In this document: positions 8,133 through 55,877 of the stretch, in pieces | Layout of the letters: each line of letters opens with the position of its first letter | How positions within the stretch are numbered: position 1 is the first letter of the stretch | Origin: a virus | Taxonomy: Duplodnaviria; Caudoviricetes | Direction: 5' to 3' (one strand) | Virus record (IMG/VR): IMGVR_UViG_3300050132_000092 | Location: 1-55,877 of that record | Length of the DNA: 55,877 bases | Translations under genes and position numbers: made by a program | The notes under the pieces: model-generated | What the model saw: only the letters and a program-made list of their open reading frames with translations | Told to the model about the DNA's origin: nothing | The model's database searches: none

Positions 8133-8563
8133 GCGTCGCGTGGTCTGGTTGTAGTACATTATTAAATACCCCTCATATACACCGAGCTTTTAAGGTTTAA
8201 GGTAAGATTATTGTTATAAAACAGTAGTTTGCAATAAGACTATTCTTGTCAGGTCGGTTTTTCACTAGCTCTAGTACAGTGACATCTACTATAATCATAA
8301 TATGTGTTATTATATTACTATAGTTGTTATTGTGTACCCTCCACTAATATATAAAAAAAGATAGTAAGGGGTAATGGTATAAGTAGCTGATATATAACAG
8401 TAAAAAGTACCTCAAATTGTATTAGCATACCTTGGTTCTTGGGGGTATAAATGGGGCTGCTGCTATTCCATCAGATAATAAATGGACACGATAACAATAT
8501 ATAATAACATGAGATTTGTTGCATGTATCTGCACCGTTCGCATAATATGTAATAACAAAAACG

Positions 8564-8592
8564 TTGACACGGTTGCGGCTAGTAGCTAATAT
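8564..8592 (+). promoter_or_regulatory. putative rightward promoter
   Basis: TTGACA-17 bp-TAATAT at the end of an AT-rich intergenic region. Confidence 0.5.
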
Positions 8593-8605
8593 TTAGGCTA
8601 GTAGT

Positions 8606-9241
8606 GTGCCGGTCGCCCCGGCTAGGATGGTGGAGAATATGAGGAAATGGGATGACGGTGGATTAAGTAAGAAAAGATTTTGCAAGCGATGTGGTCACTC
8701 GTGGTTGTCTCATACCGGTATGCCTCCTATAATGTGCCCGGCGTGTCAATCTCGCTTATGGAGTCATGCGGAAGTTTTGCAGCGTGTCGCCGTGCTATGT
8801 GCTAAATGTGGTTATTCGTGGCGACCTCATGAGCCTACCCGGCGACCTGTCGCCTGTCCTGGATGCAAGTCGCGGGCGTGGGATGGCTTGCATGATTGTT
8901 GCGGGCGTCTGTTACCGGGTGCCGTGCTGCCGGTCATTGTGCCGGTGGTACTGGCAGGCGTTGCGCCGCCTGCTGAGCCGTGTGGCTTCTGTTTCGGCGA
9001 AGGTTGCCCGGCGTGTGATGATACGAATTTATCATGGTGTAAGTGGTGTTTAGGTAAAGGTTGCGACCGTTGCCCGTCTGCCGTACCGGTCGCCGTGTCG
9101 TCTGTCCCGTGTTTCATGTGTGGTGGTGCTGGTTGTCCGGCGTGTGATCCGTCACCGTATCCTGATACATGTTTCGCCTGCGGTGGTGCTGGTCGTGCTG
9201 ACGGTCTGAAGTGTCCCATTTGCGGCGTGGTGCGGTCATGA
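8606..9241 (+). CDS. Cys-rich multi-zinc-finger protein
   Basis: Two CxxCG.SW...CPxC.S..W ribbons plus several CxxCxGxGCxxC (DnaJ-like) repeats; start uncertain. Confidence 0.65.
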   Translation: MPVAPARMVENMRKWDDGGLSKKRFCKRCGHSWLSHTGMPPIMCPACQSRLWSHAEVLQRVAVLCAKCGYSWRPHEPTRRPVACPGCKSRAWDGLHDCCGRLLPGAVLPVIVPVVLAGVAPPAEPCGFCFGEGCPACDDTNLSWCKWCLGKGCDRCPSAVPVAVSSVPCFMCGGAGCPACDPSPYPDTCFACGGAGRADGLKCPICGVVRS

Positions 9242-9522
9242 GTGCTTATATTACAGTTTACGACGTTCCTTTAAATTTCCGGCAAGCAATGAAATTAGAA
9301 TTGATCCGTGACATGCTGGAACATGGTGGAAGTATAACAGGTCGAAAGGGCTATTATAATTATTTTATCAATCGTGGGTGGATGATAGAAATCAAGGGGC
9401 TTAAATATAATACTGTTGAATTTGAATTTACGGATAAAGGCATGTGGTATTATCGGGAGTTCCGCAAGCTGTACGCTGAAATGCAGGCGGATGTGGTTTT
9501 ATATTACAAGGTACATGGATAA
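9238..9522 (+). CDS. hypothetical protein
   Basis: ATGA overlap with the upstream stop; followed by a GC hairpin at ~9533-9558. Confidence 0.6.
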   Translation: MSAYITVYDVPLNFRQAMKLELIRDMLEHGGSITGRKGYYNYFINRGWMIEIKGLKYNTVEFEFTDKGMWYYREFRKLYAEMQADVVLYYKVHG

Positions 9523-9614
9523 CAGGCAAGGTGCCGGGCGGCTATAAGGTCGCCCGGCGTGGAGTGGTGGGCTAGGTAGTGCGGGGCGTGTGGCTGGCTG
9601 TCAGTATGCCTGAG

Positions 9615-9794
9615 TTATGATCCTTGATGTTGCTTCTGATACAACTCCAACCACGCAAAAGCCAAACCCGGCACCCTGCGTTCTCCGCCCTCCCAGTCCT
9701 GCCACGTTCGGTAAGGGGTGCCGGAAAGTTCTGCCGCTTTTGCCATTGATAGCCCTGCTAATTTGCGCTTTTCTCGGAGTGCTGCGCCGGTCAT
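9615..9794 (-). CDS. XRE-family HTH regulator (59 aa, not in the ORF track)
   Basis: MTGAALREKRKLAGLSMAKAAELSGTPYRTWQDWEGGERRVP; its TAA stop lies in the GTTA core. Confidence 0.85.
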   Translation of the reverse strand: MTGAALREKRKLAGLSMAKAAELSGTPYRTWQDWEGGERRVPGLAFAWLELYQKQHQGS

Positions 9795-9994
9795 TTGGCA
9801 CCAGCATTGTGCCTGGGGACAATAAAAAACCGTCTGCTATTTGGGTGTTTTTGCTTTTGCAACACACGATTGCAAACAGGACACACAACCGTTGCGGCTG
9901 TCATTTCAGGAGTGAACCCAAAGGGATTATCCCCATCGTAGTAGCAAGTATTACTGTGACTGCATTTTTCTGATTTCATCGGTGTTTTAGCCAT
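9791..9994 (-). CDS. small Cys-containing hypothetical protein
   Basis: MAKTPMK...CPVC; overlaps both neighbours; GGGGTGG SD-like sequence. Confidence 0.55.
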   Translation of the reverse strand: MAKTPMKSEKCSHSNTCYYDGDNPFGFTPEMTAATVVCPVCNRVLQKQKHPNSRRFFIVPRHNAGAK

Positions 9995-10197
9995 TTGTTC
10001 CACCCCTTTACAAATCCTGTAATTTGAGCCTGAGATGCTGACAAATACCAAGAGCGCAGTCCGTGGCCGTTACGGCAAAGGTCATCAAGTACCCTGTGTG
10101 CTGTCTCAGCGTTGCAGGCTCCAGGGTCAAGACCTATGTGCCTCATTTCGCCACGTGTTGCCGATATTGCTTGCTCAATCTTTGTCATTTCTCTCAC
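9976..10197 (-). CDS. hypothetical protein
   Basis: GAGGTG RBS downstream of the cassette promoter. Confidence 0.6.
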   Translation of the reverse strand: MREMTKIEQAISATRGEMRHIGLDPGACNAETAHRVLDDLCRNGHGLRSWYLSASQAQITGFVKGWNKWLKHR

Positions 10198-10209
10198 CTC
10201 TTAATTACT

Positions 10210-10260
10210 ACTATACACGCATTGCGTACCTTGTCAACATAAATAATGTGCATTGCGTAT
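10210..10260 (-). promoter_or_regulatory. cassette promoter with two operator-like palindromes
   Basis: TTGACA-16 bp-TATAGT; ACGCATTGCGT within the spacer and GTGCATTGCGTA upstream. Confidence 0.6.
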
Positions 10261-10282
10261 ATTTTTCTAACGGTGGCAAACT

Positions 10283-10345
10283 GATCATAACAAAACGTAG
10301 CAGCAGGCGATGAAGCCCGCTGCTGTCAGTATGCCTGAGTTTTGC
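10283..10345 (+). other. attC-like site (same family as 17420-17483)
   Basis: TAAC-AAAAC-GTAGCAGCAGGCGATGAAGCCCGCTGCTGT...GTT; 47 nt between AAC and GTT in both copies. Confidence 0.65.
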
Positions 10346-10524
10346 AGGCGGTCAATAACTCCAAACAATCCGTTTCCTTTTATGTAGTCAATTCCTTTGT
10401 CTCTTAACATTTCGATATCGCATTGTGTAGCTGTCGGAAGTTCTTTAAATATTACTGGCGCGTGCGAACTTCCTCCCTGCTGCATCCTCTGTATATCTTC
10501 CCAAGTTCTTCCGCATATTAACAT
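10285..10524 (-). CDS. hypothetical protein whose C-terminus is rewritten by the cassette insertion
   Basis: GGAGG leader; the last residues (AAGFIACCYVLL) are read from the attC-like site. Confidence 0.6.
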   Translation of the reverse strand: MLICGRTWEDIQRMQQGGSSHAPVIFKELPTATQCDIEMLRDKGIDYIKGNGLFGVIDRLQNSGILTAAGFIACCYVLL

Positions 10525-10627
10525 CAGTTGCGGGCCTCCTGTCGCCCGGTGTGGGGTGTGGTGCTAGCCTGTAACTGGCGGTGCTAGCCTGTACGCCATA
10601 AAATCAATAAGAGTATAATAATAGCTG

Positions 10628-10801
10628 TTAGTTCTGGCATGGTGTCGCCTCCTGGCCGGTGTGCGGTATGGCTGTAATGCAATCCGCCCGGTTATAGCTC
10701 TGCATGATCCAAGTGCCGGTAAAGCGGAGTACATAGCGCGGTTCACTGTAGCCGGTGTACTCACGGGTTATAGTATAGCGTCGGTCTGCTGGTTGTCTCA
10801 T
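10628..10801 (-). CDS. small phage hypothetical protein (57 aa, not in the ORF track)
   Basis: GGAGGCCCGCAAATG leader; MRQPADRRYTITREYTGYSEPRYVLRF. Confidence 0.65.
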   Translation of the reverse strand: MRQPADRRYTITREYTGYSEPRYVLRFTGTWIMQSYNRADCITAIPHTGQEATPCQN

Positions 10802-10821
10802 TTGCGGGCCTCCCCTGGCTG

Positions 10822-11202
10822 TTAGAAGTCTTGAATAATAAACGATTCGCCGTCGATGTCTATGACTTGCGTGTCGGCGCGTATCTTGTCAAGCGTCGCC
10901 TCGTAATCTATTTCGCCTGGTGTGGCGGGTGTACCCTCCTCTTCGTCGGCTTCTTCCGGTTCTACGTCCCAAACGATAAAATCATCATTGTAAGCGGTTA
11001 TAAACTCTTGGACGCTGGCATATTCGCTGTACTCACAGCACAGCGCGATAACATCAAGCTCTATTTCTTCGCCGGTGTCCTCTTCATACTCTTCCAGATA
11101 GGCAAATAGAGCTTTGCGGCCTGCATAGGTAAAGTTGTCTGCTCGGTTGGCGTCTATAAAGGCGCGTTCAAAATCATATTCGCTGACGGTGGTTTTCATC
11201 AT
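10822..11202 (-). CDS. highly acidic phage protein
   Basis: Conserved leader; EEIELDVIALCCEYSEY; very D/E-rich. Confidence 0.75.
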   Translation of the reverse strand: MMKTTVSEYDFERAFIDANRADNFTYAGRKALFAYLEEYEEDTGEEIELDVIALCCEYSEYASVQEFITAYNDDFIVWDVEPEEADEEEGTPATPGEIDYEATLDKIRADTQVIDIDGESFIIQDF

Positions 11203-11230
11203 TTGCGGGCCTCCTGTCGCCCGTGGGTGG

Positions 11231-12154
11231 TTAGAGTGCTAGGGTGTCGTGCCATTGCGCTATAAAGCGGTTTATTTCTGCGGCGGTAAACGTGTGACAT
11301 CCAGCTTTAACAGTGCCGTCCTCGGCTATGCTATCCAGTATGAAGGCTCCCAGGTGGATCACATGGCCGTTGGTGTGGTAAGGTTCGCCGCGCCGTGACT
11401 GCCAGAATCGCAGTGCTTTAACGGCGTGATCAAGCGGGCACTCTGCACCTTGGCTGGTTAATATGAGGCCGTCGTGGATAGTTATATAGTCGGTTGCGGG
11501 CTGACCTGCTGACAGTTGATCCCATTCGCGTCGCTGGTAACTAGCAGGACACCTGCCTGCGCCGGTCGTCAACCAGATTTTAAACTGTTTGGCGTCGGCT
11601 TTCTGCTGTTTGAGTGCGGCGGCCTGGCGGGTGGCTTCCAGGCGTGCCCGCTCCGCTGCTTTACGGTCGGCGTACTCCGTGACGGTGGCAAGGTCGAGCG
11701 CGTATTCTGGCATGTCTGGCAGTTTGACGTTAAAGCGGGCGGCGTGGGTTTGGATGCGTTCACGCTCCTGGAGATAGGCGGCTATGGCGTCAAGTTTGGT
11801 CTGCTTGCGGGTCCTGGTGGCTGACATAGCGGCGTCAAGGGTCTGTATGGCTTCTCGTGCTGCCGGTATGGTTAGCGCCTCGTGTGTTGCTGCCGGGTTG
11901 CTGCCGGACCAGGAGAAAGCGGGTGTGCGGAATATCCGCTCGCGCTCATGGTTTACCGCCTGCCGTGCGTAGCTGAGGTGCCTGCCGGTACTCGGTGACA
12001 TATTATCTGAACTGATATAAATAACGTCGTCCAGGCGTGCGGCAATAGTGGTACTGTAACTGGTTAGTGTTACGCCGTCGGTTTTGAGATTGCTGCCTTT
12101 GGCGGGTGTTCCGTGTGCCCAAGAATGGGCTACTTGCTGATTGCTGACTGACAT
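11231..12154 (-). CDS. phage hypothetical protein
   Basis: Likely start MSVSNQQVAHSWA after CAGGAGG. Confidence 0.7.
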   Translation of the reverse strand: MSVSNQQVAHSWAHGTPAKGSNLKTDGVTLTSYSTTIAARLDDVIYISSDNMSPSTGRHLSYARQAVNHERERIFRTPAFSWSGSNPAATHEALTIPAAREAIQTLDAAMSATRTRKQTKLDAIAAYLQERERIQTHAARFNVKLPDMPEYALDLATVTEYADRKAAERARLEATRQAAALKQQKADAKQFKIWLTTGAGRCPASYQRREWDQLSAGQPATDYITIHDGLILTSQGAECPLDHAVKALRFWQSRRGEPYHTNGHVIHLGAFILDSIAEDGTVKAGCHTFTAAEINRFIAQWHDTLAL

Positions 12155-12254
12155 GGCGGTGTGCCTCCTGTCTGTTAGAGTGAAAGAATTATTACAGCGA
12201 CGATATAAAATGTTGCGACGGCTACAAGGGCAAATATAAGGGTGAAAAACCATT

Positions 12255-12968
12255 CTATGGTTGACACGGTTGCACCTCCAAACGGTCAAGATAATATTGC
12301 AACTCGTCTGCTAGCTGCTCGGTTGCGTACTCATAGCCGATAAAACACCAAACCTCGTCGCGTCCGTCGTCGTCAAGCGTCCAAGCGTCGCCGTCAAAGG
12401 TGTACGTCCAGCGGATTAGGCCGTAACATTCACCGTTGCACCATTTCTCATAATCGGATAATACAGCGGCGGCATAATTGCGGCGGCGTTCTGGTGGTAC
12501 GTCATCAGGTACGATATAATAGCCGTCTGCGGAGTCAATAGCATAGTCTGATACTGCGTCTGACGGCTTGCCGGGTTTCCGGCTGCTCTTCGTGTCACTT
12601 ACGGTAAATGGACCGGCTGACACACTGCATGATGCCGTACCGGGGCCGTGGTTTGATCCACAATATGATATTGTAAAAACTCGACCAAGCGCAGCACGGA
12701 TGATCCGTTTAAACTCTTCCGGGTCGGGTCGCTGTCCGTAGTGTACGTATGAGTGGTCAAACTGTATAAACTCGCCCTCGTTGTCGTCTAGCGGGTCGGT
12801 GCAGTCGTCATCCTGGCAAAGTGCCGTGATAAGTGCCCGCTTGCCGTCTTTGCTGAGGTAAAGCGCGGCGGTATTATCTAGCGTGCCGGATTCGTCGTTG
12901 AATGGCATTAGAAAGGTATGGCCGTCAATCTCTATGTCATATGTCCGGTGTATTCGTGTGGTGCTCAT
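12255..12968 (-). CDS. phage hypothetical protein
   Basis: 237-aa ORF with GAGGGGG RBS. Confidence 0.7.
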   Translation of the reverse strand: MSTTRIHRTYDIEIDGHTFLMPFNDESGTLDNTAALYLSKDGKRALITALCQDDDCTDPLDDNEGEFIQFDHSYVHYGQRPDPEEFKRIIRAALGRVFTISYCGSNHGPGTASCSVSAGPFTVSDTKSSRKPGKPSDAVSDYAIDSADGYYIVPDDVPPERRRNYAAAVLSDYEKWCNGECYGLIRWTYTFDGDAWTLDDDGRDEVWCFIGYEYATEQLADELQYYLDRLEVQPCQP

Positions 12969-13044
12969 AGCGTCCCCCTCGTGGCATGTGCCTGTCTGGT
13001 GGTGGCAATCGTTCTGCCGGTTGGTGTGGGTGTGTCGTTTACTC

Positions 13045-13227
13045 TCATTGTCTGACCTCCTGTGGTCTGGCTGCGTCTATCATTAATAGAAAAGTTTTAT
13101 GTCTGTCGCACTCGTCTAATGATCCTTTAAAGATTGGTTTAATATCGTTACCAATAAATACACCGTAGCCACTAAAAGGTGCCTGTAATGTTCCATATGT
13201 TTTGTAGGTGTCAATCTGATATTTCAT
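13045..13227 (-). CDS. hypothetical protein
   Basis: CAGGAGG RBS. Confidence 0.55.
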   Translation of the reverse strand: MKYQIDTYKTYGTLQAPFSGYGVFIGNDIKPIFKGSLDECDRHKTFLLMIDAARPQEVRQ

Positions 13228-13314
13228 GGTCTGGCCTCCTGGTATATCGGATTAATTGCTTGCTACAGTTTGGAGTCTACAGGGTTTTGATTTATTGTCA
13301 ACATAATAATCACA

Positions 13315-13569
13315 CTAGCGGTATTTTTCTTTATAGTCAACGAAGCAGACAATTATGCCGCCTTCCTCTTCGGGTAGTACCTTTATGATCCGCCCCTCGT
13401 ACTTAAAAGCGTACCCGCCAAAATTACCGAATGAGTATTGATATAACGGCGTCCTCATTTTGCAGTAACCCTCCGCGCCGTGATAAAGCAAAACTTTCTC
13501 CTGTTTGCCGTTTACCAGGTGTACGCATTTACTGCCTGAATTATTTAGATAATAAGTTCCGTTTCTCAT
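13315..13569 (-). CDS. hypothetical protein
   Basis: AAGGAGG RBS; first gene after a TTGACA-containing AT-rich segment. Confidence 0.6.
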   Translation of the reverse strand: MRNGTYYLNNSGSKCVHLVNGKQEKVLLYHGAEGYCKMRTPLYQYSFGNFGGYAFKYEGRIIKVLPEEEGGIIVCFVDYKEKYR

Positions 13570-13672
13570 TGTCTGGCCTCCTTTTATTTAGCCGATATGT
13601 CACAGTAAACTATATTTTGATTACTTGTCAATGATTATTTTGCACCTGACTATATTTTATTCTGACGCCGGT

Positions 13673-13837
13673 GGATCGTCCGGGTGGTGACGGGCGGATC
13701 GTCCAGGTGGTGACGGGTGGATCGTCCAGGTGGTGACGGGTGGATCGTCCGGGTGGTGACGGGGGCCGGATCGTCCAGGCGCTGACGGGGGCCGGATCGT
13801 CCAGGTGGTGACGGGCGGATCGTCCAGGTGGTGACGG
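13673..13837 (+). repeat. seven 23-26 bp iteron-like repeats GGATCGTCCRGGTGGTGACGG
   Basis: Directly visible; each unit contains GATC. Confidence 0.92.
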
Positions 13838-13956
13838 CTATAAAACCATATATACGGATTATTGAATGTCTAGCTGGTAGCTGGTAGCAGGCGGTCGAGC
13901 AGGTGTAGCCGCCCTGGCGTACACACAGGGCGGCTGGCAGATTTGCAGAATATCGG

Positions 13957-14085
13957 TTGGTCAGCTTTTTATAAAATGCGGTGGGACAATCGTGTGTGGC
14001 GGCTTGGTCAGGTTTTTATAAAATCAGTGTGGACATTTGCGTGCGGCGGCTTGGTCAGGTTTTTATAAAATACGGTGGGACAATC
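13957..14085 (+). repeat. three ~47-bp degenerate repeats with the TTTTATAAAA palindrome (fourth copy at ~14323-14357)
   Basis: TTGGTCAG.TTTTTATAAAAT...GTGGGACAATC recurs. Confidence 0.85.
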
Positions 14086-14333
14086 AGAACGGCAACTCGA
14101 CCGGTTTTCTAAAGCTCTGCACGTACTGGTCGTACATCTCCCGCGTTAATCTGCCGCCATTTACCCAGAACAGTGTGACGACGGTTGGTATGGTGAGCAA
14201 GCGGCCATGTGGAAGGATCGTCGGACTGACCCCATACCATCTCTCTGACTTCCTGCCACGAGTAGCCGGTACGGAATTGATTGTATGATATGGGAGCGGT
14301 GGTGGTCACGGGGGGGTGTCCTTTGGTCAACAT
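14084..14333 (-). pseudogene. probably frameshifted phage hypothetical gene
   Basis: Removing one base at ~14145 turns KWRQI-NAGD into KWRQIKREMYDQYV...ELPF-stop. Confidence 0.4.
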
Positions 14334-14363
14334 TTAGTAAAATGTGGTGGGACAATCATTAGG

Positions 14364-14528
14364 TTATGTCACTCTGCAACAGGTTCGTAAGTTGCCGCTC
14401 TGCGATTTCCTGATTGCACCCTTGTTGCCGATCTTGATCTTGCCCAGCTCGACAAGGCCGGGGCAGAGATTCTTGATCATCATGGCGTTGCGCTGTCTTG
14501 GTTGATACTGTTGGATCTCGTTGCTCAT
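14364..14528 (-). pseudogene. short or truncated phage gene fragment
   Basis: AAGGAG RBS; MIKNLCPGLVELGKIKIG looks like the N-terminus of a longer phage protein and ends abruptly. Confidence 0.35.
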
Positions 14529-14620
14529 GCTGTGCTCTCCTTTTTGGTTTATGCTGCTTGTAATTTTATTATTCAATCTCTTAAAAGATTACCCCTGAAA
14601 AATAGATAGTCAAGACGGCT

Positions 14621-14641
14621 ATCTAATTGATGTTATAAAGC
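14621..14641 (+). other. attI-like simple site at the head of the cassette array
   Basis: ATCTAAT-TGAT-GTTATAA; no hairpin upstream; GTTATAAAGC matches GCTTTATAAC at 15161. Confidence 0.45.
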
Positions 14642-15147
14642 TAAATTTTTACTGTGCCAATTTGCGAAAATGCTTTTTTGAATCCTGCCACGTCTGGCCC
14701 GAGATAAGTCACGACACTGCCCTTGCTAACGTCCTTTGTCTTTGTCCCGTCCGGCTTGTAGTAGTTGGTTCTGCCGTGGATGTAGCATTGCGGGAAAGCA
14801 AGCAATGGCCTGAACCATTCCTCAGAAGTGGCGGCATAGGTAATGCAGCAAGCGGCTTCTACGTTCCGGCTCATGGCGTACTCTCTGACCAGCTTTTTGA
14901 TAAACGCTGCATTGTTTGCCCTGCTGAATGGGTGATTCATCCATACCCGTCCGTACCACGGCTTAGACAGACCATCGTCAGCAGCGGTGAAAAACTCCGC
15001 AGCTTTTACAGTCTGGTTTGCAATCACACTCGATGCAGGGTCAAGGTCGATAAATCCCAATACTTGCCGCGCAGCCTCTATGATTTCAGGTGGTGTGTAA
15101 TATTCCACATTCCCGCTGTCTTGATTGATTTGCTGACATTTGTTCAT
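14641..15147 (-). CDS. phage DNA N6-adenine methyltransferase (cassette 1)
   Basis: EYYTP, IDLDPAS and VWMNHPF (NPPF-like) motifs. Confidence 0.85.
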   Translation of the reverse strand: MNKCQQINQDSGNVEYYTPPEIIEAARQVLGFIDLDPASSVIANQTVKAAEFFTAADDGLSKPWYGRVWMNHPFSRANNAAFIKKLVREYAMSRNVEAACCITYAATSEEWFRPLLAFPQCYIHGRTNYYKPDGTKTKDVSKGSVVTYLGPDVAGFKKAFSQIGTVKI

Positions 15148-15160
15148 AAATTCTCCTTAC

Positions 15161-15233
15161 GCTTTATAACCATCGGCTCGACCAGACCGCCGAAAACCAC
15201 GGCGAACTGGTCAGCCTCAAGCCGTTAGATTAC
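15161..15233 (+). other. canonical-looking attC site
   Basis: R'' TTATAAC, 5-nt spacer, L'' GCT(C)GACC, CGCCG/CGGCG stem, L' GGTCAGC, 8-nt spacer, R' GTTAGAT; extra base at L'' position 4. Confidence 0.82.
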
Positions 15234-15619
15234 TCAACCCACTCGCCTGCCTCTTTATCGTTCATCATGCCATCCAACTGTTCCCTGCTAATTTGATCTG
15301 TAGCCGGTATTTTCTGAATCAAAAGCCGAATCAACTCATATAGATTGTGCTGGTACGGTTCTATGCCTAAAGCGTCACAGCTGATATTTTCCAGACCGGC
15401 TATATTCACCCTGACAGCATCGTAAAGATTGAAATATTCGTTGTATTTTTTGGTCATTTCAACCAACTCTTCCTTCGGTCCAGGCGTCCCTTCATGTCTG
15501 GCGCATGACACATAATGCTCCAGTAAATCAAATGCTGTGGTTGTCGGATAAATCCCGTCTACTGGGTTATCAAGCATTTGACTGATAATTTCACATATTG
15601 CTGTTCTGTCTTTTTCCAT
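15230..15619 (-). CDS. hypothetical protein (cassette 2)
   Basis: AAGGAG RBS; stop adjacent to the R' core. Confidence 0.7.
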   Translation of the reverse strand: MEKDRTAICEIISQMLDNPVDGIYPTTTAFDLLEHYVSCARHEGTPGPKEELVEMTKKYNEYFNLYDAVRVNIAGLENISCDALGIEPYQHNLYELIRLLIQKIPATDQISREQLDGMMNDKEAGEWVE

Positions 15620-15665
15620 GGTGTTTCTCCTTTTTCTTAGTTTGTTTGCATATATGACAGTTTCC

Positions 15666-15689
15666 GTAATCTAACCAGATGTTAGATTG
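15666..15689 (+). other. collapsed attC / simple site ATCTAAC-CAGAT-GTTAGAT
   Basis: Perfect 7-bp inverted repeat with a 5-bp spacer; each half matches its own cassette's other end. Confidence 0.65.
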
Positions 15690-15936
15690 ATCTGCGACGT
15701 TCAAGCTTTTGCGAACGGGTAAACAGGCTTTTATTCTTGCGCCGCTCTTTGCGAGTCTCCCCCGCGAATTGCGAGAGCTTCCCGCCAGAAGTAAGCGACA
15801 CCATAGCCTCGTCCGCTCCGTTGAGCTTTTTTCCAGCAGCCGGGATATACTCGTCTGTGAGCCGCTGGTACTTTGACCGCTCCAGTACATCAACCATTTC
15901 CAAGTTTCTTACCAAATGTCCGGTATCACAGTTCAT
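15682..15936 (-). CDS. hypothetical protein (cassette 3)
   Basis: GGAGG RBS; TAA lies in the GTTA core. Confidence 0.65.
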   Translation of the reverse strand: MNCDTGHLVRNLEMVDVLERSKYQRLTDEYIPAAGKKLNGADEAMVSLTSGGKLSQFAGETRKERRKNKSLFTRSQKLERRRSI

Positions 15937-16102
15937 CTCTTGCCTCCATAATCATCACTCTGAATTTTTTACCGATGTAGTTAGCGCCGACTGAAACATA
16001 AAACATTCCGTATCTGTTGCCATACTCGCCAGCGGGGCGGCACTCAACAGTTTTCACATACTTGAACTGCTCGTAGAACTCTTGGCACCGTTTACATTTC
16101 AT
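15926..16102 (-). CDS. small hypothetical protein (58 aa, cassette 3, not in the ORF track)
   Basis: AAAGGA RBS; MKCKRCQEF...; overlaps the next gene. Confidence 0.55.
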   Translation of the reverse strand: MKCKRCQEFYEQFKYVKTVECRPAGEYGNRYGMFYVSVGANYIGKKFRVMIMEARDEL

Positions 16103-16118
16103 GGCTCGTATCCTTTCG

Positions 16119-16184
16119 CAATCTAACCAGCTTTTTCGACACAGGCGGCAACAGGCCGCCGCTGTTCAGCTAAATACGTTATGC
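16119..16184 (+). other. attC-like site (hybrid arms)
   Basis: ATCTAAC...GGCGGC/GCCGCC stem...GTTATGC. Confidence 0.65.
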
Positions 16185-16448
16185 TTACTTGCTCCACTCT
16201 TTCCTCGTACAAGGGCAAAGTCTTGCCACCGGACAATCATCGCAATAGCCAGGGTTAGTGTCTTTGTCGAGAATGCATCCCCAAGGGCGAGGCGTCTTGT
16301 CATCGCTCCAGTCGTGTGCCACCGGAATATGATTTGCCGCCAGAGTACAGATCTTTTGCAGTTCCTCTTTTTCGGAAGTGATAAATTGATGCTTCTTCGC
16401 TTTGATGTCGTTGTATTCCGCCTCGGTCAACAGATATTGCATAACCAT
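16185..16448 (-). CDS. Cys-rich hypothetical protein (cassette 4)
   Basis: PWGCIL...YCDDCPV..LCP; RBS lies inside the attC. Confidence 0.7.
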   Translation of the reverse strand: MVMQYLLTEAEYNDIKAKKHQFITSEKEELQKICTLAANHIPVAHDWSDDKTPRPWGCILDKDTNPGYCDDCPVARLCPCTRKEWSK

Positions 16449-16495
16449 CTCCTTCGAGCCGTCAAGCGGCTCAACTCGTACCCCGTTATATTTCT
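16439..16495 (+). other. short attC site
   Basis: R'' GCATAAC, L'' CTT(C)GAGC, L' GCTCAAC, R' GTTATAT. Confidence 0.72.
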
Positions 16496-16707
16496 ACCCG
16501 CGTCACCTTGAATGAACAGCTACAGATAGACATGCCCTTTTCATGTGCAAGCTCTTTGACTTTGAGTTTGCGGCCACTTTCAACAATTATTTCCCGCTCT
16601 GCGTAATGAGTTCTTGCCTGATAATTCATTTTCATCCACTCCGATACAGCCTCAAGGGCGCAGTAATTCGGAGTATGCTTGTCAGTTTTTATTTTAATAG
16701 TTGGCAC
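16486..16707 (-). CDS. hypothetical protein (cassette 5)
   Basis: AAGGGGG RBS, GTG start, TAA in the GTTA core. Confidence 0.6.
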   Translation of the reverse strand: MPTIKIKTDKHTPNYCALEAVSEWMKMNYQARTHYAEREIIVESGRKLKVKELAHEKGMSICSCSFKVTRVEI

Positions 16708-16729
16708 GATTCCCCCTTAATAATCCGAC

Positions 16730-16793
16730 ACATAACCATAACGTTCCAGAGGGATGCCGTCAAGCGGCTCAACTCGTACCCCGTTATATTTCT
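16730..16793 (+). other. attC-like site whose right 38 bp duplicate 16458-16495
   Basis: ACATAAC...GCCGTCAAGCGGCTCAACTCGTACCCCGTTATATTTCT. Confidence 0.65.
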
Positions 16794-17278
16794 GATTCCA
16801 CTATTTCGAATACTGCCTTGATTGCTTCCCGCGCTGTTGCTGCTGTGCCGGATTTCGACCAGATAGCAATGCTGATCATTTCAATGCATTCCTTTGCAGC
16901 CTGTTTTCGTGCTGCATTGATTGCCTGCCGTATTTCTACCTCCACGCAATCCAGAGGGTCGCCACTATCACAACCGGAAGAATCCGCACCGTACTCAGTG
17001 TGCAACCATTCCAAACGCTCACACCATCGATTTTGCTCATCATCTTCGCATTGGCCGCAACTTTGGTTTTCCTTCAATCGCTCGTTTTCTGTTTGAATCT
17101 GTATCACTTGCGTTTCCAAAAACACGATCCTGTCAGCGGCCTGCAAAAGTAATGGCTCACCTTCGTTTAATGCAGCCTGTAGCAGTGCGTTCTTTTGTTG
17201 CAAGTTGATCACTTGTGCCTGGATATGGCACGTCATAGTACCGCCAAAGGGCTTGACTGCTTCACATATTAAGCTCAT
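16784..17278 (-). CDS. coiled-coil hypothetical protein (cassette 6)
   Basis: GGAGG RBS; TAA in the GTTA core; DSSGCDSGDPLD motif. Confidence 0.7.
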   Translation of the reverse strand: MSLICEAVKPFGGTMTCHIQAQVINLQQKNALLQAALNEGEPLLLQAADRIVFLETQVIQIQTENERLKENQSCGQCEDDEQNRWCERLEWLHTEYGADSSGCDSGDPLDCVEVEIRQAINAARKQAAKECIEMISIAIWSKSGTAATAREAIKAVFEIVESEI

Positions 17279-17406
17279 TCGTTTTCATCCTCCCAGTTGT
17301 CACACTCTAGACATGTCAGTTGATAGCCACTGCCGACATTGTTTATGTCAACATCGTCGCTTCCGCATTTGAGACAAATAACTTGGAATTTTTTGAAGTA
17401 GACCAT
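17275..17406 (-). CDS. 43-aa zinc-ribbon protein (cassette 6, not in the ORF track)
   Basis: CLKCGS...CLEC; AAGGGGG RBS; ATGA overlap with the next gene. Confidence 0.6.
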   Translation of the reverse strand: MVYFKKFQVICLKCGSDDVDINNVGSGYQLTCLECDNWEDENE

Positions 17407-17419
17407 TGTTCCCCCTTAC

Positions 17420-17483
17420 GAAATATAACAAATCGTAGCAGCAGGCGATGAAGCCCGCTGCTGTTCAGCTAAATACGTTCTAC
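17420..17483 (+). other. terminal attC-like site
   Basis: GAAATATAAC matches GTTATATTTC at 16783; hairpin; ends GTTCTAC. Confidence 0.68.
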
Positions 17484-17657
17484 TGCCCTTAGATTGTTAA
17501 TCCTGTTTGCGATATTACACGTCGGCTCCGGCACTGACAGCTTCTCGGCGCAGGATTTATGCAAAATTCGCAGATGGCCATCTACCGTCACCTCTGCAAA
17601 GTGATTACCCCTTAACTGCTTGCCACAACTCCAGCAGAATCTCACGTGGGGATTCAT
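17469..17657 (-). CDS. small zinc-binding hypothetical protein
   Basis: CWSCG...HKSC; ATGA overlap. Confidence 0.6.
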   Translation of the reverse strand: MNPHVRFCWSCGKQLRGNHFAEVTVDGHLRILHKSCAEKLSVPEPTCNIANRINNLRAVERI

Positions 17658-17881
17658 AACTTACACCCCATCAGCACCAGTTCGCGCATAAAGTCACCGA
17701 TACTGTCACAGCCGCTGGTCTGGTATGCCGCGCTGACCGCAGCCAGTTCTCCGTCACTGTAGCGTTGCATCAGCCGGTGACGGCGGCTGTCGGGCTTACT
17801 GGAACCTACCGGCCTACCGGCTCCTGGACGTGTGCCACCTCGGTGTGGCGGTGTGCTGTCATACTGTGTAGCGATGGTCAT
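17654..17881 (-). CDS. small DNA-binding protein (AT-hook-like GGxRPGAGRP plus RHH-like region)
   Basis: RGGTRPGAGRP motif; AGGAGG RBS. Confidence 0.6.
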   Translation of the reverse strand: MTIATQYDSTPPHRGGTRPGAGRPVGSSKPDSRRHRLMQRYSDGELAAVSAAYQTSGCDSIGDFMRELVLMGCKL

Positions 17882-17918
17882 CTGGTAGCCTCCTAGCAGT
17901 TAGTTAGTTGTTCTGATG

Positions 17919-17965
17919 TGTAGTGTACAGTAATTTGATATGTTGTCAATAGTTATTTTGCACCC
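17919..17965 (-). promoter_or_regulatory. leftward promoter reading into the cassette array
   Basis: TTGACA-16 bp-TACACT; the context GGTGCAAAATAA..ATTGACA also occurs at ~13626-13646. Confidence 0.55.
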
Positions 17966-17970
17966 GCCGG

Positions 17971-20322
17971 TCAGCCCGTACCACTCTGACCCCACGCCTG
18001 ACCGGCGACACTGGCACCAGTCTGAGCGTCCAGATACCGGCGCGTTATATCCGACGCTGACGTAACCTGTGCCAGCAGACCGTCACTACGCACGTACAGT
18101 CGAGGTTTACCGCCTTCCGGCAGACTATTGTGAACACGACCATCCGGCAACGCCTGAGTCAGCACGTAGCCGAGCGATTTCATAATCTCCTTGTATTTAT
18201 TCGGGCTGATGTTCTTGCGACCGTCGAACAGCCGTGACAGCGCCGAGCTGCTGACGAATCCTCCGGCGAATCCTGCCGATCCTTGCGCGATCATCTCCAC
18301 GATAGTCTGCTCGACTACACCCAGACTGGCAACCATCGCCTCGTCGGTGGAACTGGTGCGTGGCGCTCGCTGACAACTGGTGGCAGGGTTTAAAGCGTCC
18401 GGTATGGCGTAGCCCCGCAAATAATGGTTCACCACGGCGTTGCCGCCCGCAAACAGCCAGTCGTACAGTTCGGGAAAATATGAACCGCTCATGCCGTCGC
18501 GCTCCAGGTCGCCCACTTCCTGCTGCCCTGTATAGAATATAGCGTAGCGGCGGTCGGTGCCGGTCTTGCGAATCGCGTCTTTATGGTTGCTGAACAGAAT
18601 AAAATTAGCGCGGTTATCGCCGGTAATCTGGTTGGCTCCCTTGCCCTGAAAGCCGATCCGTTTATTCGTGATCATCGGTTTGAGTGCTTCGATCAGGCTG
18701 CTGCGGTCGTTGGTGTAGACCTCTTCGATGCCGATCAGCAATTTGCCCTGTAACCACGAGTTGAATTTATTGTCGATGTCCTGCGCGTTCGGCAGATCGA
18801 CGTAACGATCACCGATACAATGCGACAGCACTGTGCTTAACATCGACTTACCGTTGCCCTCCATGCCGATCAGTAACGGTGCCCATTGAAACTTGACGCC
18901 CGGATACTGCACGACCGCCGCCATGTAAGCCAGCATGATCGCGTAGTCGTCGGGGTCAGGTAGCATCTGAGCGAGGTGTGACAGGAACCGTGACGGGTCG
19001 CCGGGTTTAATTTCGGTAATCACCGGCATGTAAGTATTAACCATGCGCCGTCCCTGTTCAGTTATCACCGCGCCAGGAGCGCATTCCGGTCTGAAACAGG
19101 TGCTAGCTACTTTGGGAAAGGTGAAGGTGCGCGACTCGGTAAACGCTTCCCAGGCGTTCTTGGTGCCTTTACTGTTGCCCTCTTCGACCATGAACTCATA
19201 GCCGCCATACATCACCCTGAAGCGCCCTTGGTCAAGAATCTCGCCGGTCGGACAGAATACACCGTGGTCAGATGTCACGTAGACGCAACCACGGAAATGC
19301 TGTTGCTGGCCGGTAATGGTCAATATCTGCCCGCCGCCCCGGTATTCGCCTGCCGGTTCATCGGGACGGAGCGCCGGTGCTTCGGTTGGCGGTAAGACGG
19401 TCGGGCCGGTAGCCGGTTCGTCAGCCAGGTGTTCACCGTAGACCGCCGTGCTGGACTTGCCGAATTTACTGATGGTGAGCTGGCCGTAAGTGCGACCGCC
19501 ACCCGCCGACCGGTCCCATTTGTCACGCATCAGGCCCGACTGGCGGAACAGCCGGTCGATGCGGTCACAGTCTCTGCCGGTCCAGAAGCTGAGGTGGCTG
19601 ACCAGCGCGGCGTCGGCTTCGGATTGGCCGTCAGGATCGCAGATACCAGCCCACAGATCGGCAAGCGGAATGGCTGCTGAGAACGGATTGCCACGACTGG
19701 TTAACATGCGTGTTATGAGGGTCGGATCGTCGAGGGGGCCGTGGTAGGCGGGGTCATGTGTGGTAGTCCAGTCTGAAGGCTGTACGGAACTGCCGACTGG
19801 AAAATAGTTTTCTGTGAGCCAATTAATCTGTTGGTCGGCTATGTGCGACATACTGCCGGTGCCGTTGACGAGCGCACAGAACCTTTTACTGGTATAATAT
19901 TCTAACCCCGAATTGTGAATATCGCGGGTGCGGTGTTCTGACGGCGGTGTGGACAGACTGCCGATGATGTGAAGGCCATTACCGGACGAACTGGTTTCAA
20001 TGTAGCATCCGGCAAAATACCGGCAGAGCTGCGTGGCGAGCGGCGACCAGGTGCCGTCAAGCTGGAGGGCGTTGTCGATGTCTACAAAGAATAGATTGTC
20101 TTGCTCGGTGAACGTCAGGCCGACACCATGACCGATACCTGACGCGACCACAGCCTGCGCGTCGGTGTACGACATCCAGATAGCAGGATCGTGGGCGTCA
20201 TGTGCCTTGCCGGTGAGCGGGTGGATAGTTATTTTATCGGTCTTGCCTGGTCGGGTGGCTGAGGGCCGGATGACATAGACGACGTATTGCCGGTGTTGCG
20301 ACACTATGCGCCCGCCACTCAC
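17971..20322 (-). CDS. primase-polymerase (NrS-1-like) fused to an SF3/DUF5906 helicase
   Basis: FVDID, ETSSSGNGLHI, DRLFRQSGLMRDKW, Walker A GMEGNGKS. Confidence 0.88.
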   Translation of the reverse strand: MSGGRIVSQHRQYVVYVIRPSATRPGKTDKITIHPLTGKAHDAHDPAIWMSYTDAQAVVASGIGHGVGLTFTEQDNLFFVDIDNALQLDGTWSPLATQLCRYFAGCYIETSSSGNGLHIIGSLSTPPSEHRTRDIHNSGLEYYTSKRFCALVNGTGSMSHIADQQINWLTENYFPVGSSVQPSDWTTTHDPAYHGPLDDPTLITRMLTSRGNPFSAAIPLADLWAGICDPDGQSEADAALVSHLSFWTGRDCDRIDRLFRQSGLMRDKWDRSAGGGRTYGQLTISKFGKSSTAVYGEHLADEPATGPTVLPPTEAPALRPDEPAGEYRGGGQILTITGQQQHFRGCVYVTSDHGVFCPTGEILDQGRFRVMYGGYEFMVEEGNSKGTKNAWEAFTESRTFTFPKVASTCFRPECAPGAVITEQGRRMVNTYMPVITEIKPGDPSRFLSHLAQMLPDPDDYAIMLAYMAAVVQYPGVKFQWAPLLIGMEGNGKSMLSTVLSHCIGDRYVDLPNAQDIDNKFNSWLQGKLLIGIEEVYTNDRSSLIEALKPMITNKRIGFQGKGANQITGDNRANFILFSNHKDAIRKTGTDRRYAIFYTGQQEVGDLERDGMSGSYFPELYDWLFAGGNAVVNHYLRGYAIPDALNPATSCQRAPRTSSTDEAMVASLGVVEQTIVEMIAQGSAGFAGGFVSSSALSRLFDGRKNISPNKYKEIMKSLGYVLTQALPDGRVHNSLPEGGKPRLYVRSDGLLAQVTSASDITRRYLDAQTGASVAGQAWGQSGTG

Positions 20323-24087: not shown

Positions 24088-24123
24088 CAACACGCCGGTC
24101 AACCCGGCCAGGAGGTATACAGA

Positions 24124-27403: not shown

Positions 27404-28483
27404 ATGAGTCGCCAACGGCAGGAAAACAAGAAAATAGTTTACCGTCTTATCGGAAAATTCGATAGAGATGGTTATCCTGCCGAACTGCCTTGGATTATGG
27501 ATTTTTTGGCTAAAGTAGACATTAACGGGGGCAGAGTAAACACAAACAATCAGCAGGATACGCTCGACACCTTGTGGAAAAGATACGGGGAAAATAACAC
27601 GCCGGTCAACCCGGCCAGGAGGCTACACACAATGAAACACGGAGAAAATCACGTAATTACCGGTAACGCTATCGTCGTTTGGGACGGCATTACCAAACCT
27701 GAAACCATGAAGAACGGTCAGCCTATGGCTAAACCGCAATTCAGCCTGAAACTGGCACTCCAGCCGACCGACAGCAGTGTTGCTGAAATTGACGCTATCT
27801 GTAAAGCGGCACTTCAGACCAGCGAGTTTAAAGGCGTCATGCCGCATGGTGGTTCATGGCCGCTGGCATCAGCCAACCCGCAGATCGCCGACGGGGCGCT
27901 GAACGGTATGGTCACAATCAATCCGAAGACCACACAGCAGGACATCACGCAGAAAGTCTACGACGCTAACGGTCAGTTGCTTAATCCGCTGTCTTACGCC
28001 AGAATGTTGTACCCCGGCGCAATCGTACAGGTTATCGTTCACGCTTTCCCGTTTAACAACGTGCAGAAGGGTATTGCTTTAGGTCTGGACGGCATCAGAA
28101 TTATTGACGCGGCGGCTCCGGCACTGAACATCGGTGCCAGTATGCCTGCCAGTGAGGTCGCAACGGCGTTCGGTGCTCCTGTCGCTCCCGGTATGTTCGC
28201 CGGTCAGCCTGGCATGGCACCGGGTCAGCCGAGTGGTTATCAGCCGCCTGTAGCTCCCGGCGCACCGGGCCAGTACGTGCCGCCACAACAGCAGTACGCC
28301 GCACCGCCGGTACAGCCACCCATGCCGCCGATCACACCGGCTCCTGACTTCTTGCAACCACAGACACCACCTCTGCCGCCTGCACATCAGATGCTGCCCG
28401 CCGCGCAGGGAGCGACTTTTGAACAGCTCGTGGCCGTTGGGTGGACCGAAGCAACACTCAGACAGCATGGTATGATGGTGTAA
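27404..28483 (+). CDS. DUF2815 / T7 gp2.5-like ssDNA-binding protein (probable start at 27632)
   Basis: LYPGAIV...FPFNNVQKGIALGLDGI; strong CAGGAGG RBS before the ATG at 27632. Confidence 0.75.
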   Translation: MSRQRQENKKIVYRLIGKFDRDGYPAELPWIMDFLAKVDINGGRVNTNNQQDTLDTLWKRYGENNTPVNPARRLHTMKHGENHVITGNAIVVWDGITKPETMKNGQPMAKPQFSLKLALQPTDSSVAEIDAICKAALQTSEFKGVMPHGGSWPLASANPQIADGALNGMVTINPKTTQQDITQKVYDANGQLLNPLSYARMLYPGAIVQVIVHAFPFNNVQKGIALGLDGIRIIDAAAPALNIGASMPASEVATAFGAPVAPGMFAGQPGMAPGQPSGYQPPVAPGAPGQYVPPQQQYAAPPVQPPMPPITPAPDFLQPQTPPLPPAHQMLPAAQGATFEQLVAVGWTEATLRQHGMMV

Positions 28484-55475: not shown

Positions 55476-55877
55476 TTACAGGCGGCTGTAACCTGTTTCA
55501 AATGGTTCGGCAGGTGAATAGCTAGAATAACCATCACCATCCAGATATTCAACATAATAACCATTAATAGCAGGTTGGTGTTTCTGCGTCCAGACGTCAT
55601 CCACCACACGCTGTGAGCCAATCAATCCAAGAATCAAGACATTGCCCTGTATAGCGGTTATTTTGGCTGCCCTCACCTGTTTGTGACACTGGTACAACGG
55701 TAAGTCGGCACGCTGTATGACGACAGGTGCCGCCTCGACAGGTGCCGCCTCGACAGGTGCCGCCTCGACAGGTGCCGCCTCGACAGGTGCCGCCTCGACA
55801 GGTGCCGCCTCGACAGGTGCCGCCTCGACAGGTGCCGCCTCGACAGGTGCCGCCTCGACAGGTGCCGCCTCGACAGG
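55476..55877 (-). CDS. C-terminal part of the junction-spanning protein
   Basis: (VEAAP)n-VVIQRADLPLYQCHKQVRAAKI...GYYVEY..DGYSSYSPAEPFETGY, open to the contig end. Confidence 0.85.
   Translation of the reverse strand, partial: PVEAAPVEAAPVEAAPVEAAPVEAAPVEAAPVEAAPVEAAPVEAAPVEAAPVVIQRADLPLYQCHKQVRAAKITAIQGNVLILGLIGSQRVVDDVWTQKHQPAINGYYVEYLDGDGYSSYSPAEPFETGYSRL
55721..55877 (+). repeat. 15-bp tandem repeat (10 copies plus partials), right contig end
   Basis: Same unit as 1-142. Confidence 0.98.

Follow-up and report, generated by a model that had tools for sequence, protein, structure and literature searches.

Integron recombination is thought to keep the incoming attC site intact and to leave no duplication behind. 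Cassettes of the delta-attI type, which occur in integrons of classes 1 and 2, have their attC replaced by a 14-18-nt copy of the recipient attI end and are flanked by repeats of this end; their origin is called largely unknown in parts of the paper that treats them (PMC12901181). Clusters of attC sites without an integrase (CALINs), methylase cassettes included, have already been published in virulent phages (parts of PMC9892861), and the replicative resolution of a first strand exchange is an established route of recombination (parts of PMC3458562). Here, we describe a phage genome (Caudoviricetes; IMG/VR record IMGVR_UViG_3300050132_000092) in which these themes meet. The window comprises the whole record of 55,877 bp, which has direct terminal repeats and is rated 100% complete. 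Between positions 9597 and 17479, this phage, which has no integrase of its own, has captured genuine integron gene cassettes, and three of their attC sites are hybrids whose right arm copies the left boundary of the same insert.

The hybrid sites are marked by direct repeats, which the original prediction had reported and which proved exact when they were re-read in the sequence. A solo cassette (cassette A) is flanked by two copies of a 20-mer (GCTGTCAGTATGCCTGAGTT; A1, 9597-9616; A2, 10322-10341), a block of three cassettes (cassettes 4-6) by two copies of another (GCTGTTCAGCTAAATACGTT; B1, 16161-16180; B2, 17460-17479), and cassette 5, which is nested in this block, by a 38-nt repeat (16458-16495 and 16756-16793). 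The second copy of each 20-mer is preceded by a 40-nt block (10287-10326 and 17425-17464), and the two blocks are 98% identical to each other. The notion that the duplications follow the same attC left arm holds for the second copies only; A1 is preceded by native phage sequence and B1 by the left arm of a different, intact attC. We scanned the genome for exact direct repeats of at least 14 nt with copies 100-5000 nt apart, and most of those found were tandem arrays or repeats of ribosome-binding regions. Beyond these and the three repeats described above, only one other repeat of at least 20 nt emerged, a 27-mer (AACACGCCGGTCAACCCGGCCAGGAGG; 24089-24115 and 27596-27622) whose copies lie 3.5 kb apart and outside the cassette region. 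The A 20-mer has no other match in viral contigs.

The left parts of A2 and B2 belong to a single attC family, fam1. We searched for the fam1 left arm without its right arm, so that the copies retrieved from outside the window are unbiased. All eight distinct outside copies, which are found on five viral contigs, two metagenome contigs and a contig of the sequencing run X3 (a third metagenome contig duplicates the viral contig L005), read GCTGT-ACTNAAGCC-GTT, the continuation after GCTGT being ACTNAAGCCGTT. By contrast, both fam1 copies of the window diverge after GCTGT, with CAGTATGCCTGAGTT in A2 and TCAGCTAAATACGTT in B2, and in each case the 15 nt after GCTGT repeat exactly what stands immediately to the left of the cassette or block concerned. 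The X3 contig parts from the window exactly after position 10326, where it continues with ACTAAGGCCGTTAT. The A2 arm derives from 9597-9616, in the 3' end of a native phage gene, whereas B2 took its arm from an intact attC (16121-16184) that represents a second family, fam2, and whose right arm it repeats. The site of cassette 5 tells the same story for a third family: an intact fam3 attC on a viral contig (L075) is identical to the window over 16730-16759 and then reads ATAAGTCCGGCACCCCTGAACTGAAGCCGTTATCC, whereas the window diverges exactly after GCCG (16756-16759), and homology to X3 ends at 16759 as well. From there on, the second copy of the 38-mer replaces the loop and the right arm of the cassette 5 attC. 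Intact donor versions of these left arms exist and end differently, and the earlier proposal that the right arms were replaced by a copy of the left boundary is supported. What had been described as duplicated target sequence is native phage DNA for the solo cassette, but the right arm of a neighbouring attC for the block and for cassette 5.

One might object that no event took place in the phage at all, and that the repeats reflect the family likeness of neighbouring attCs or arms that were already present on arrival. It is true that the attCs of one array are often alike, as illustrated by 19-nt arm repeats in a Geobacter array (L045), and that the fam2 right arm is a family trait, seen again in an intact attC on a viral contig (L067), where it is combined with a related left arm. 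For B, an intact family with this exact right arm therefore exists, which the original prediction had named as a refutation; this does not undo the B2 hybrid, since the left arm of B2 belongs to another family. Indeed, the left and right arms are of different families in all three sites, the eight unbiased fam1 copies as well as the fam3 relative have other right arms, and A1 lies within a native phage gene rather than an attC. It is not credible that stretches of 20, 20 and 28 nt would all match the left border of their own insert by chance, and we consider this explanation highly improbable.

The three events, namely the insertion of cassette A, of block 4-6 and of cassette 5 within the block, share a common anatomy. 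In line with the strand exchange at G/TT that the original prediction had inferred, the left junction is in each case a canonical G|TT crossover, in which the recipient up to G is joined to the TT of the cassette, and homologues in other phages and in X3 begin at the same nucleotide. At the right junction, the incoming attC is kept from R'' to a microhomology of 4-5 nt (GCTGT, GCTGT and GCCG), beyond which a copy of the recipient right arm extends to the G of GTT over 13, 13 and 24 nt. Each event is thus composed of one integrase-type junction and one microhomology junction. Because the arm is copied to the right end, each insert is bracketed by direct repeats of the recipient arm. In every event, the arm was donated by the site that bounds the insert at its opposite end; B2, for instance, copies B1 over a distance of 1.3 kb and past two nearer attCs.

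For the solo cassette, the recipient site A1 (9597-9616, + strand) is located at the 3' coding end of a 79-amino acid (aa) gene on the - strand, and the cassette begins at the crossover 9614|9615. The old reading frame of this gene continues as NSGILTASHTPRTT to a stop directly before a hairpin (9534-9559) that is shared with the converging + strand gene, A1 being situated just upstream of the hairpin; the insertion provides the gene with a new tail, AAGFIACCYVLL and a stop, which is read from the attC. The gene has the upstream motif that is usual in this phage (families D5 and D6). Folding could not settle whether 9520-9620 is a degenerate attC, and we treat A1 as native phage DNA. Cassette A itself (9615-10326, +) starts with TTATGATCC and contains three open reading frames (ORFs) on the - strand, which encode proteins of 73 aa, 86 aa and 59 aa. 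The last of these is helix-turn-helix-like, with a score of 24.6 bits for HTH_31 that is below the cut-off of 27. The cassette ends in the hybrid A2 (10285-10341, +), in which the fam1 left part (R'' TCATAAC and stem-loop) reaches to GCTGT (10322-10326) and is followed by a 15-nt copy of A1 that ends in GTT.

Two further features of the solo cassette deserve mention. Within A2 (10290-10345), the spacer ACAAAAC is complementary to the new R' GTTTTGC, which consists of G and phage flank, and the site thereby gains an alternative R-box pairing (6/7). Furthermore, a strong promoter-like site of the cassette's own (TTGACA-16-TATAGT, 10237-10210, -) is flanked by two copies of TACGCAATGC (10200-10260), and homologues of the cassette in two other phages (L005, ~11940-12000; L007) have similar repeats around TTGAC; together with the helix-turn-helix-like last ORF, this sequence arrangement suggests that cassette A may be a self-regulated module.

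The recipient of block 4-6 is the intact fam2 attC (16121-16184, +), which contains B1 and has its crossover at 16178|16179. Its arms had been thought not to pair, yet its minimum-energy fold is a full hairpin that includes the R boxes. Cassette 4 (16179-16485, +) carries an 87-aa ORF (-) and has a short attC of its own (R'' 16439-16445, R' from 16485). The first copy of the 38-mer is native to this cassette, since record 18 of X3 spans 16178-16489 with one difference before it passes into other DNA. Cassette 5 (16486-16785, +; 73-aa ORF, -) ends in the hybrid of the fam3 left arm (16730-16759) and the cassette 4 right arm up to the G at 16783. Of the 38-mer, the final 10 nt (TTATATTTCT) belong natively to cassette 5 as well as to cassette 6. 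As TTATATTTCT begins the homologous cassette in X3, the duplicated part amounts to 28 nt, up to the G of GTT, and the claim that cassette 5 lacks a start of its own does not hold. Cassette 6 (16784-17464, +) encodes proteins of 164 aa and 43 aa (-), and its start TTATATTTC is complementary to its own R'' (GAAATATAA, 17421-17429). The block is closed by B2 (17423-17479, +), in which the fam1 left part reaches to GCTGT (17460-17464) and then gives way to 15 nt copied from B1, namely from its fam2 right arm; this site overlaps the last three codons and the stop of a native 62-aa gene.

Given that the contig is of metagenomic origin and that, in the likely source run, Logan contigs are interrupted where the repeats of 30-38 nt occur, we also considered an assembly artefact. 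However, the repeats are shorter than the reads, and every junction is covered by contigs of the source run at an even depth of 41-50. The second run X2, whose pieces are short and of low depth, has identical pieces over 16135-16303 and 16673-16849, and swapping the two fam1 branches restores no intact arm. A target-site duplication of the transposon type fares no better: the duplications are of unequal length (20, 20 and 28 nt), terminal inverted repeats are absent, the ends are formed by attC and G|TT, and none of the nine cassette ORFs scanned, out of 11 listed, belongs to a transposase family. We regard artefact and transposition as exceedingly improbable.

The identity of the region as an assembly of integron cassettes is apparent both from its sites and from relatives of its cassettes. 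The intact sites have pairing R'' (RYYYAAC) and R' (G|TTRRRY) boxes, which bound an imperfect palindrome and for which we follow the attC consensus quoted in parts of PMC9892861. Several R boxes deviate from the strict consensus at one or two positions; the fam1 boxes read (C/T)ATAAC ... GTTAT/GTTAG and those of fam3 in L075 CCATAAC ... GTTATCC. Owing to a GCAGCAGC repeat, fam1 can pair in either of two registers, the canonical GTA(G)CAGC / GCTGTAC and a perfect 10-bp stem. Folds of single sites recover the central stems and seldom the R boxes, with z-scores of true attCs between -1 and -4.7. A home-made attC finder, which combined R''/R' complementarity with fold energy, returned mostly false positives and was dropped. 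The fam1 hairpin also scores terminator-like on the - strand, which leaves the repeats unexplained.

Relatives of the cassettes are found in several unrelated settings. Homologues of cassette A occur on two unrelated viral contigs (L005 of G003 and L007 of G005), with the same TTATGA start and each behind a different attC, and the X3 contig is ~94% alike to the window over 9639-10326. In the same run, which stems from another study, cassettes 5 and 4 appear in the opposite order, with borders at 16485 and 16178/16179. A fourth viral contig (G002) has a homologue of cassette 6 (60% aa identity over 58 residues) that starts with TTTTATTTCT behind another attC and ends in an intact fam1 attC. On the bacterial side, a Dam methylase cassette of the window, described below, has a homologue in the Geobacter array L045, which belongs to a metagenome-assembled genome (MAG), and a near-identical fam1 attC is part of an attC array in a Deltaproteobacteria MAG (L050). 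The Geobacter MAG G006 encodes an integron integrase (TIGR02249, 316.7 bits against a cut-off of 265), with a fam1-like attC 1.2 kb from intI and another attC in between. The donors are plausibly integrons of Geobacter-like Deltaproteobacteria, which is the setting in which we place our best explanation.

In the Geobacter MAG, the top strands of these attCs are directed away from intI, and the + strand of the window is therefore the attC top strand throughout the cassette region. In hand alignments, the extrahelical bases of the site at 15164-15230 and of the fam3 (L075), L007 and L068 sites fall in the 5' half of the + strand. The cassette ORFs are located on the - strand, antisense to the attC top strand, and in the Geobacter MAG the same is true of the three cassettes closest to intI (L068, 2560-3933). 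In the phage, the antisense ORFs (9600-17480) are thus co-directional with the neighbouring phage genes.

We also searched a genome collection, in which the exact fam1 26-mer has no match. The 17-nt right-arm motif gave 46 matches at 45 loci, which is not above a rough chance estimate of ~140, and only three of these matches, in two loci, are attC-like by their flanks (L045 twice and L050 once). In L045 (~940-1017), the fam1 right arm (GCTGTACTCAAGCCGTTAT) follows a left arm to which it is unrelated, the two being separated by 11 additional nt; this attC may thus be a bacterial counterpart of the phage hybrids.

How did the hybrids arise? The genome has no match to a tyrosine recombinase, integron integrases included, in searches with the profiles TIGR02249 and PF00589. 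Lacking such an enzyme, the phage cannot have done this alone, and, as a complete genome with terminal repeats, it was replicating DNA. We find the junctions best explained by an IntI-made insertion whose second junction was closed by a template switch guided by microhomology, a reading that we hold with moderate confidence and in which the template-switch step itself is inferred. The host IntI would exchange bottom strands at the R boxes, as in a normal insertion, and the junction would then have to be resolved by replication. In this process, the growing strand would leave the recombinant strand before its end and switch, at a microhomology, to an unbroken recipient site, either on a sister phage genome or on the partner held in the synapse. 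Such copies should be abundant in a cell full of replicating phage genomes, and the product would possess one site-specific and one microhomology junction.

The switch points at GCTGT (twice) and GCCG (once) agree with the resolution at a short microhomology inside the attC that the original prediction had envisaged. The motif GCTGT-N12-GTT occurs seven times on both strands of the genome, at five distinct sites, and four of the seven occurrences are the 20-mer copies; shuffled sequences had a mean of 2.55 and reached seven in 4 of 100 shuffles. As both 20-mer targets contain this rare motif, the outcome depends on that microhomology. In consequence of the replacement, A2 and B2 have a damaged L box and spacer, while the cassette 5 hybrid has lost the loop and the right stem. 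To judge from these defects, the hybrids are probably poorer substrates for excision.

An exchange of L boxes, which had been proposed as the alternative to a template switch, fits poorly. Here, IntI would recombine the L' box of the left site with that of the cassette's attC, and the excised circle, in which the hybrid attC is already present, would re-enter a naive copy of the same recipient by a normal R-box exchange. The A and B duplications do consist of an L'-like 7-mer (GCTGTNN), a 10-nt spacer and GTT, which is the geometry of the fam2 right arm, and L-box exchange has already been proposed for delta-attI1-11 cassettes in parts of PMC12901181. Yet the A and B junctions fall at or before position 5 of the L' 7-mer, whereas an R-box-like cut would fall after position 6, and the sixth base predicted from fam1 is A, whereas the hybrids have C and T. 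Moreover, the third hybrid is joined at the loop after GCCG, outside any L box, and the circle would have to re-enter the same type of site three times. We consider this route quite unlikely.

More serious is a two-step history, in which a canonical insertion was followed by a short conversion patch that overwrote the right arm from the site at the other end of the cassette, either in an abortive IntI excision synapse of the flanking sites or by unequal recombination at the microhomology between inserted and uninserted genome copies. The end product would be identical, and the variable left end of the patch, which is the L' box in A and B and the loop in cassette 5, suits such a process. Canonical insertions with intact arms do occur in other phages, and one discussion names slippage at folded attC hairpins as a known cause of attC loss (parts of bioRxiv 10.1101/2022.09.11.507474). 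Mildly against it, the direction is the same in all three events, with the left site as donor and the right site as recipient, and the B2 arm was drawn from B1, 1.3 kb off and past two nearer attCs, a choice to be anticipated had the copying been coupled to the block's insertion. Furthermore, no canonical intermediate was seen in runs X1-X3. On balance, we consider a later conversion possible, if rather doubtful.

Several points weigh against the template switch that we prefer. Searches of GenBank phages, IMG/VR, viral contigs and runs X1-X3 turned up no empty allele, no intermediate and no close relative of the phage, so that the order of events and their one-step nature are presumed. The contigs of these runs contain no joint that skips a cassette; such contigs drop rare variants, so that this is not evidence of absence. 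A microhomology of 4-5 nt is weak for a template switch. All five other fam1-bearing viral contigs have intact arms at the array end, and the process is consequently no general property of insertion into phage DNA. As all three events are found in one genome, a lineage-specific cause, such as the replisome or an unannotated recombinase, is inseparable from the proposed route. Finally, the strand assignment derives from the orientation to intI in one MAG and from the side of the extrahelical bases, and is qualified accordingly; for the latter, we compared our sites with what we take to be the arrangement in the class 1 aadA7 site.

With even greater reserve than for the junctions of this phage, we put forward the tentative generalization that IntI insertion has a second, hitherto undescribed outcome, in which a site-specific first strand exchange is completed by replication that switches within the synapse onto the recipient, and the cassette inherits the recipient right arm. 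If so, this outcome should be frequent in replicating phage DNA with its many target copies, and it would fix cassettes, such as those for orphan methylases and small regulators, in the genomes of virulent phages. If it also took place in bacterial arrays, it would account for how delta-attI cassettes arose and, in part, for the striking similarity among the attC arms of a single array.

The remainder of the cassette array (14586-15687) lies to the left of the fam2 site. It starts with a weak attC-like site (14586-14638, +), followed by the well-paired attC of the Dam methylase cassette (15164-15230, +; TTATAAC ... GTTAGAT), for which the fold of 15170-15234 has a z-score of -4.7 and whose product scores 39.1 bits for Pfam Dam, compared to a cut-off of 28.1. 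The attC of the next cassette, which encodes a 129-aa protein, is collapsed to ATCTAAC-CAGAT-GTTAGAT (15669-15687), with R'' and R' only 5 nt apart. This looks like a hairpin deletion, a route of attC loss other than that of the three hybrids. Of the eight sites that the region comprises, four are therefore either hybrids or collapsed. The left edge of the array coincides with the last of four copies of a 47-nt unit (TTGGTCAGNTTTTTATAAAATNCGGTGGGACAATC-like), three of which are arranged in tandem at 13957-14097, while the fourth follows 272 nt on (14323-14369). Between the phage early genes and the array, there are also seven to eight tandem units of 23-26 nt (GGATCGTCCAGGTGGTGACGG-like; 13669-13837), which look like the iterons of a replication origin.

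The genes around the cassette region belong to phage families in a PHROG search. A 783-aa backbone protein is a primase (phrog_1829, E = 4e-124), and three neighbours fall into PHROGs whose function is unknown. In IMG/VR, the best relatives of the primase reach 36-44% identity and have none of the small genes of this phage, megablast against GenBank phages returned no match for positions 8500-19500, and the five viral contigs with a fam1 attC have only cassette and attC pieces in common with the window. A scan of the window against Rfam gave no family match; we know of no attC model in Rfam. Among other repetitive features, a 15-nt tandem unit (GTGCCGCCTCGACAG) runs at both genome ends within the terminal repeats (1-142 and 55721-55877). 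A 211-aa protein without a PHROG match (8606-9241, +) is built of repeated CxxC-rich segments, and the adjoining + strand genes have a common N-terminal motif, ATG.G..TTATATTAC, at 8302, 9238 and 9491. The motif TCA(T/G)TTGCGGGCCTCC... is repeated at 10522-10572, 10798-10813 and 11197-11247, where three small phage genes follow one another on the - strand and each has its ribosome-binding site and start codon overlapped by the motif.

As integron recombination goes, a single phage shows a reproducible alternative product, which arose naturally in three independent events and for which donor, recipient and junction are each exactly defined. These events offer a concrete model of how the as yet unexplained delta-attI cassettes found in clinical integrons may have formed, show that cassettes move between Geobacter-type integrons and several unrelated phages, and suggest how a phage without an integrase may retain them. 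Should the route be tied to replication of the target, the phage infection of integron-bearing hosts would offer a simple system for studying the atypical resolution of Holliday junctions. We found no publication on hybrid attCs in phages with a duplicated recipient arm; the supplementary tables of PMC9892861 and PMC12901181 may list similar hybrids.

Among the systems described so far, CALINs resemble the present locus in their setting, as they comprise attC-bounded cassettes, including an orphan DNA methyltransferase cassette, in phages without an integrase, in an array beside hairpin- or terminator-like DNA with GTT motifs (parts of PMC9892861). Unlike here, those attCs are intact and recombination-proficient, and the main-text parts of that paper make no mention of hybrid arms or flanking duplications. 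The solo cassette, which sits at a GTT in an ordinary gene outside an integron, is reminiscent of insertion into attG or secondary sites; in the canonical attG case, however, the attC stays whole and nothing is duplicated, and the words 'duplication' and 'microhomology' are absent from the preprint text as far as available (bioRxiv 10.1101/2022.09.11.507474). The replicative resolution of attC x attI recombination, with its single bottom-strand exchange followed by replication, provides the frame for a template switch, with the difference that the product described there contains the entire bottom strand and its new complement, whereas here at least the last 10 nt of the attC are left uncopied (parts of PMC3458562). 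Most similar are the delta-attI cassettes. In both, the far-end site has a short copy of the recipient end (14-18 nt there, 18-28 nt here) that stops at G|TT, and the insert is flanked by direct repeats of the recipient arm, as seen here in three cases. In the phage, by contrast, two of the recipients are attCs and the third is a secondary site within a phage gene, rather than attI; the incoming attC is not wholly replaced but retains the left arm and, twice, the entire stem; and the setting is a phage genome without an integrase. By this comparison, we regard the phage hybrids as an analogue of the delta-attI-type cassettes, the closest one published, rather than as a member of that class.

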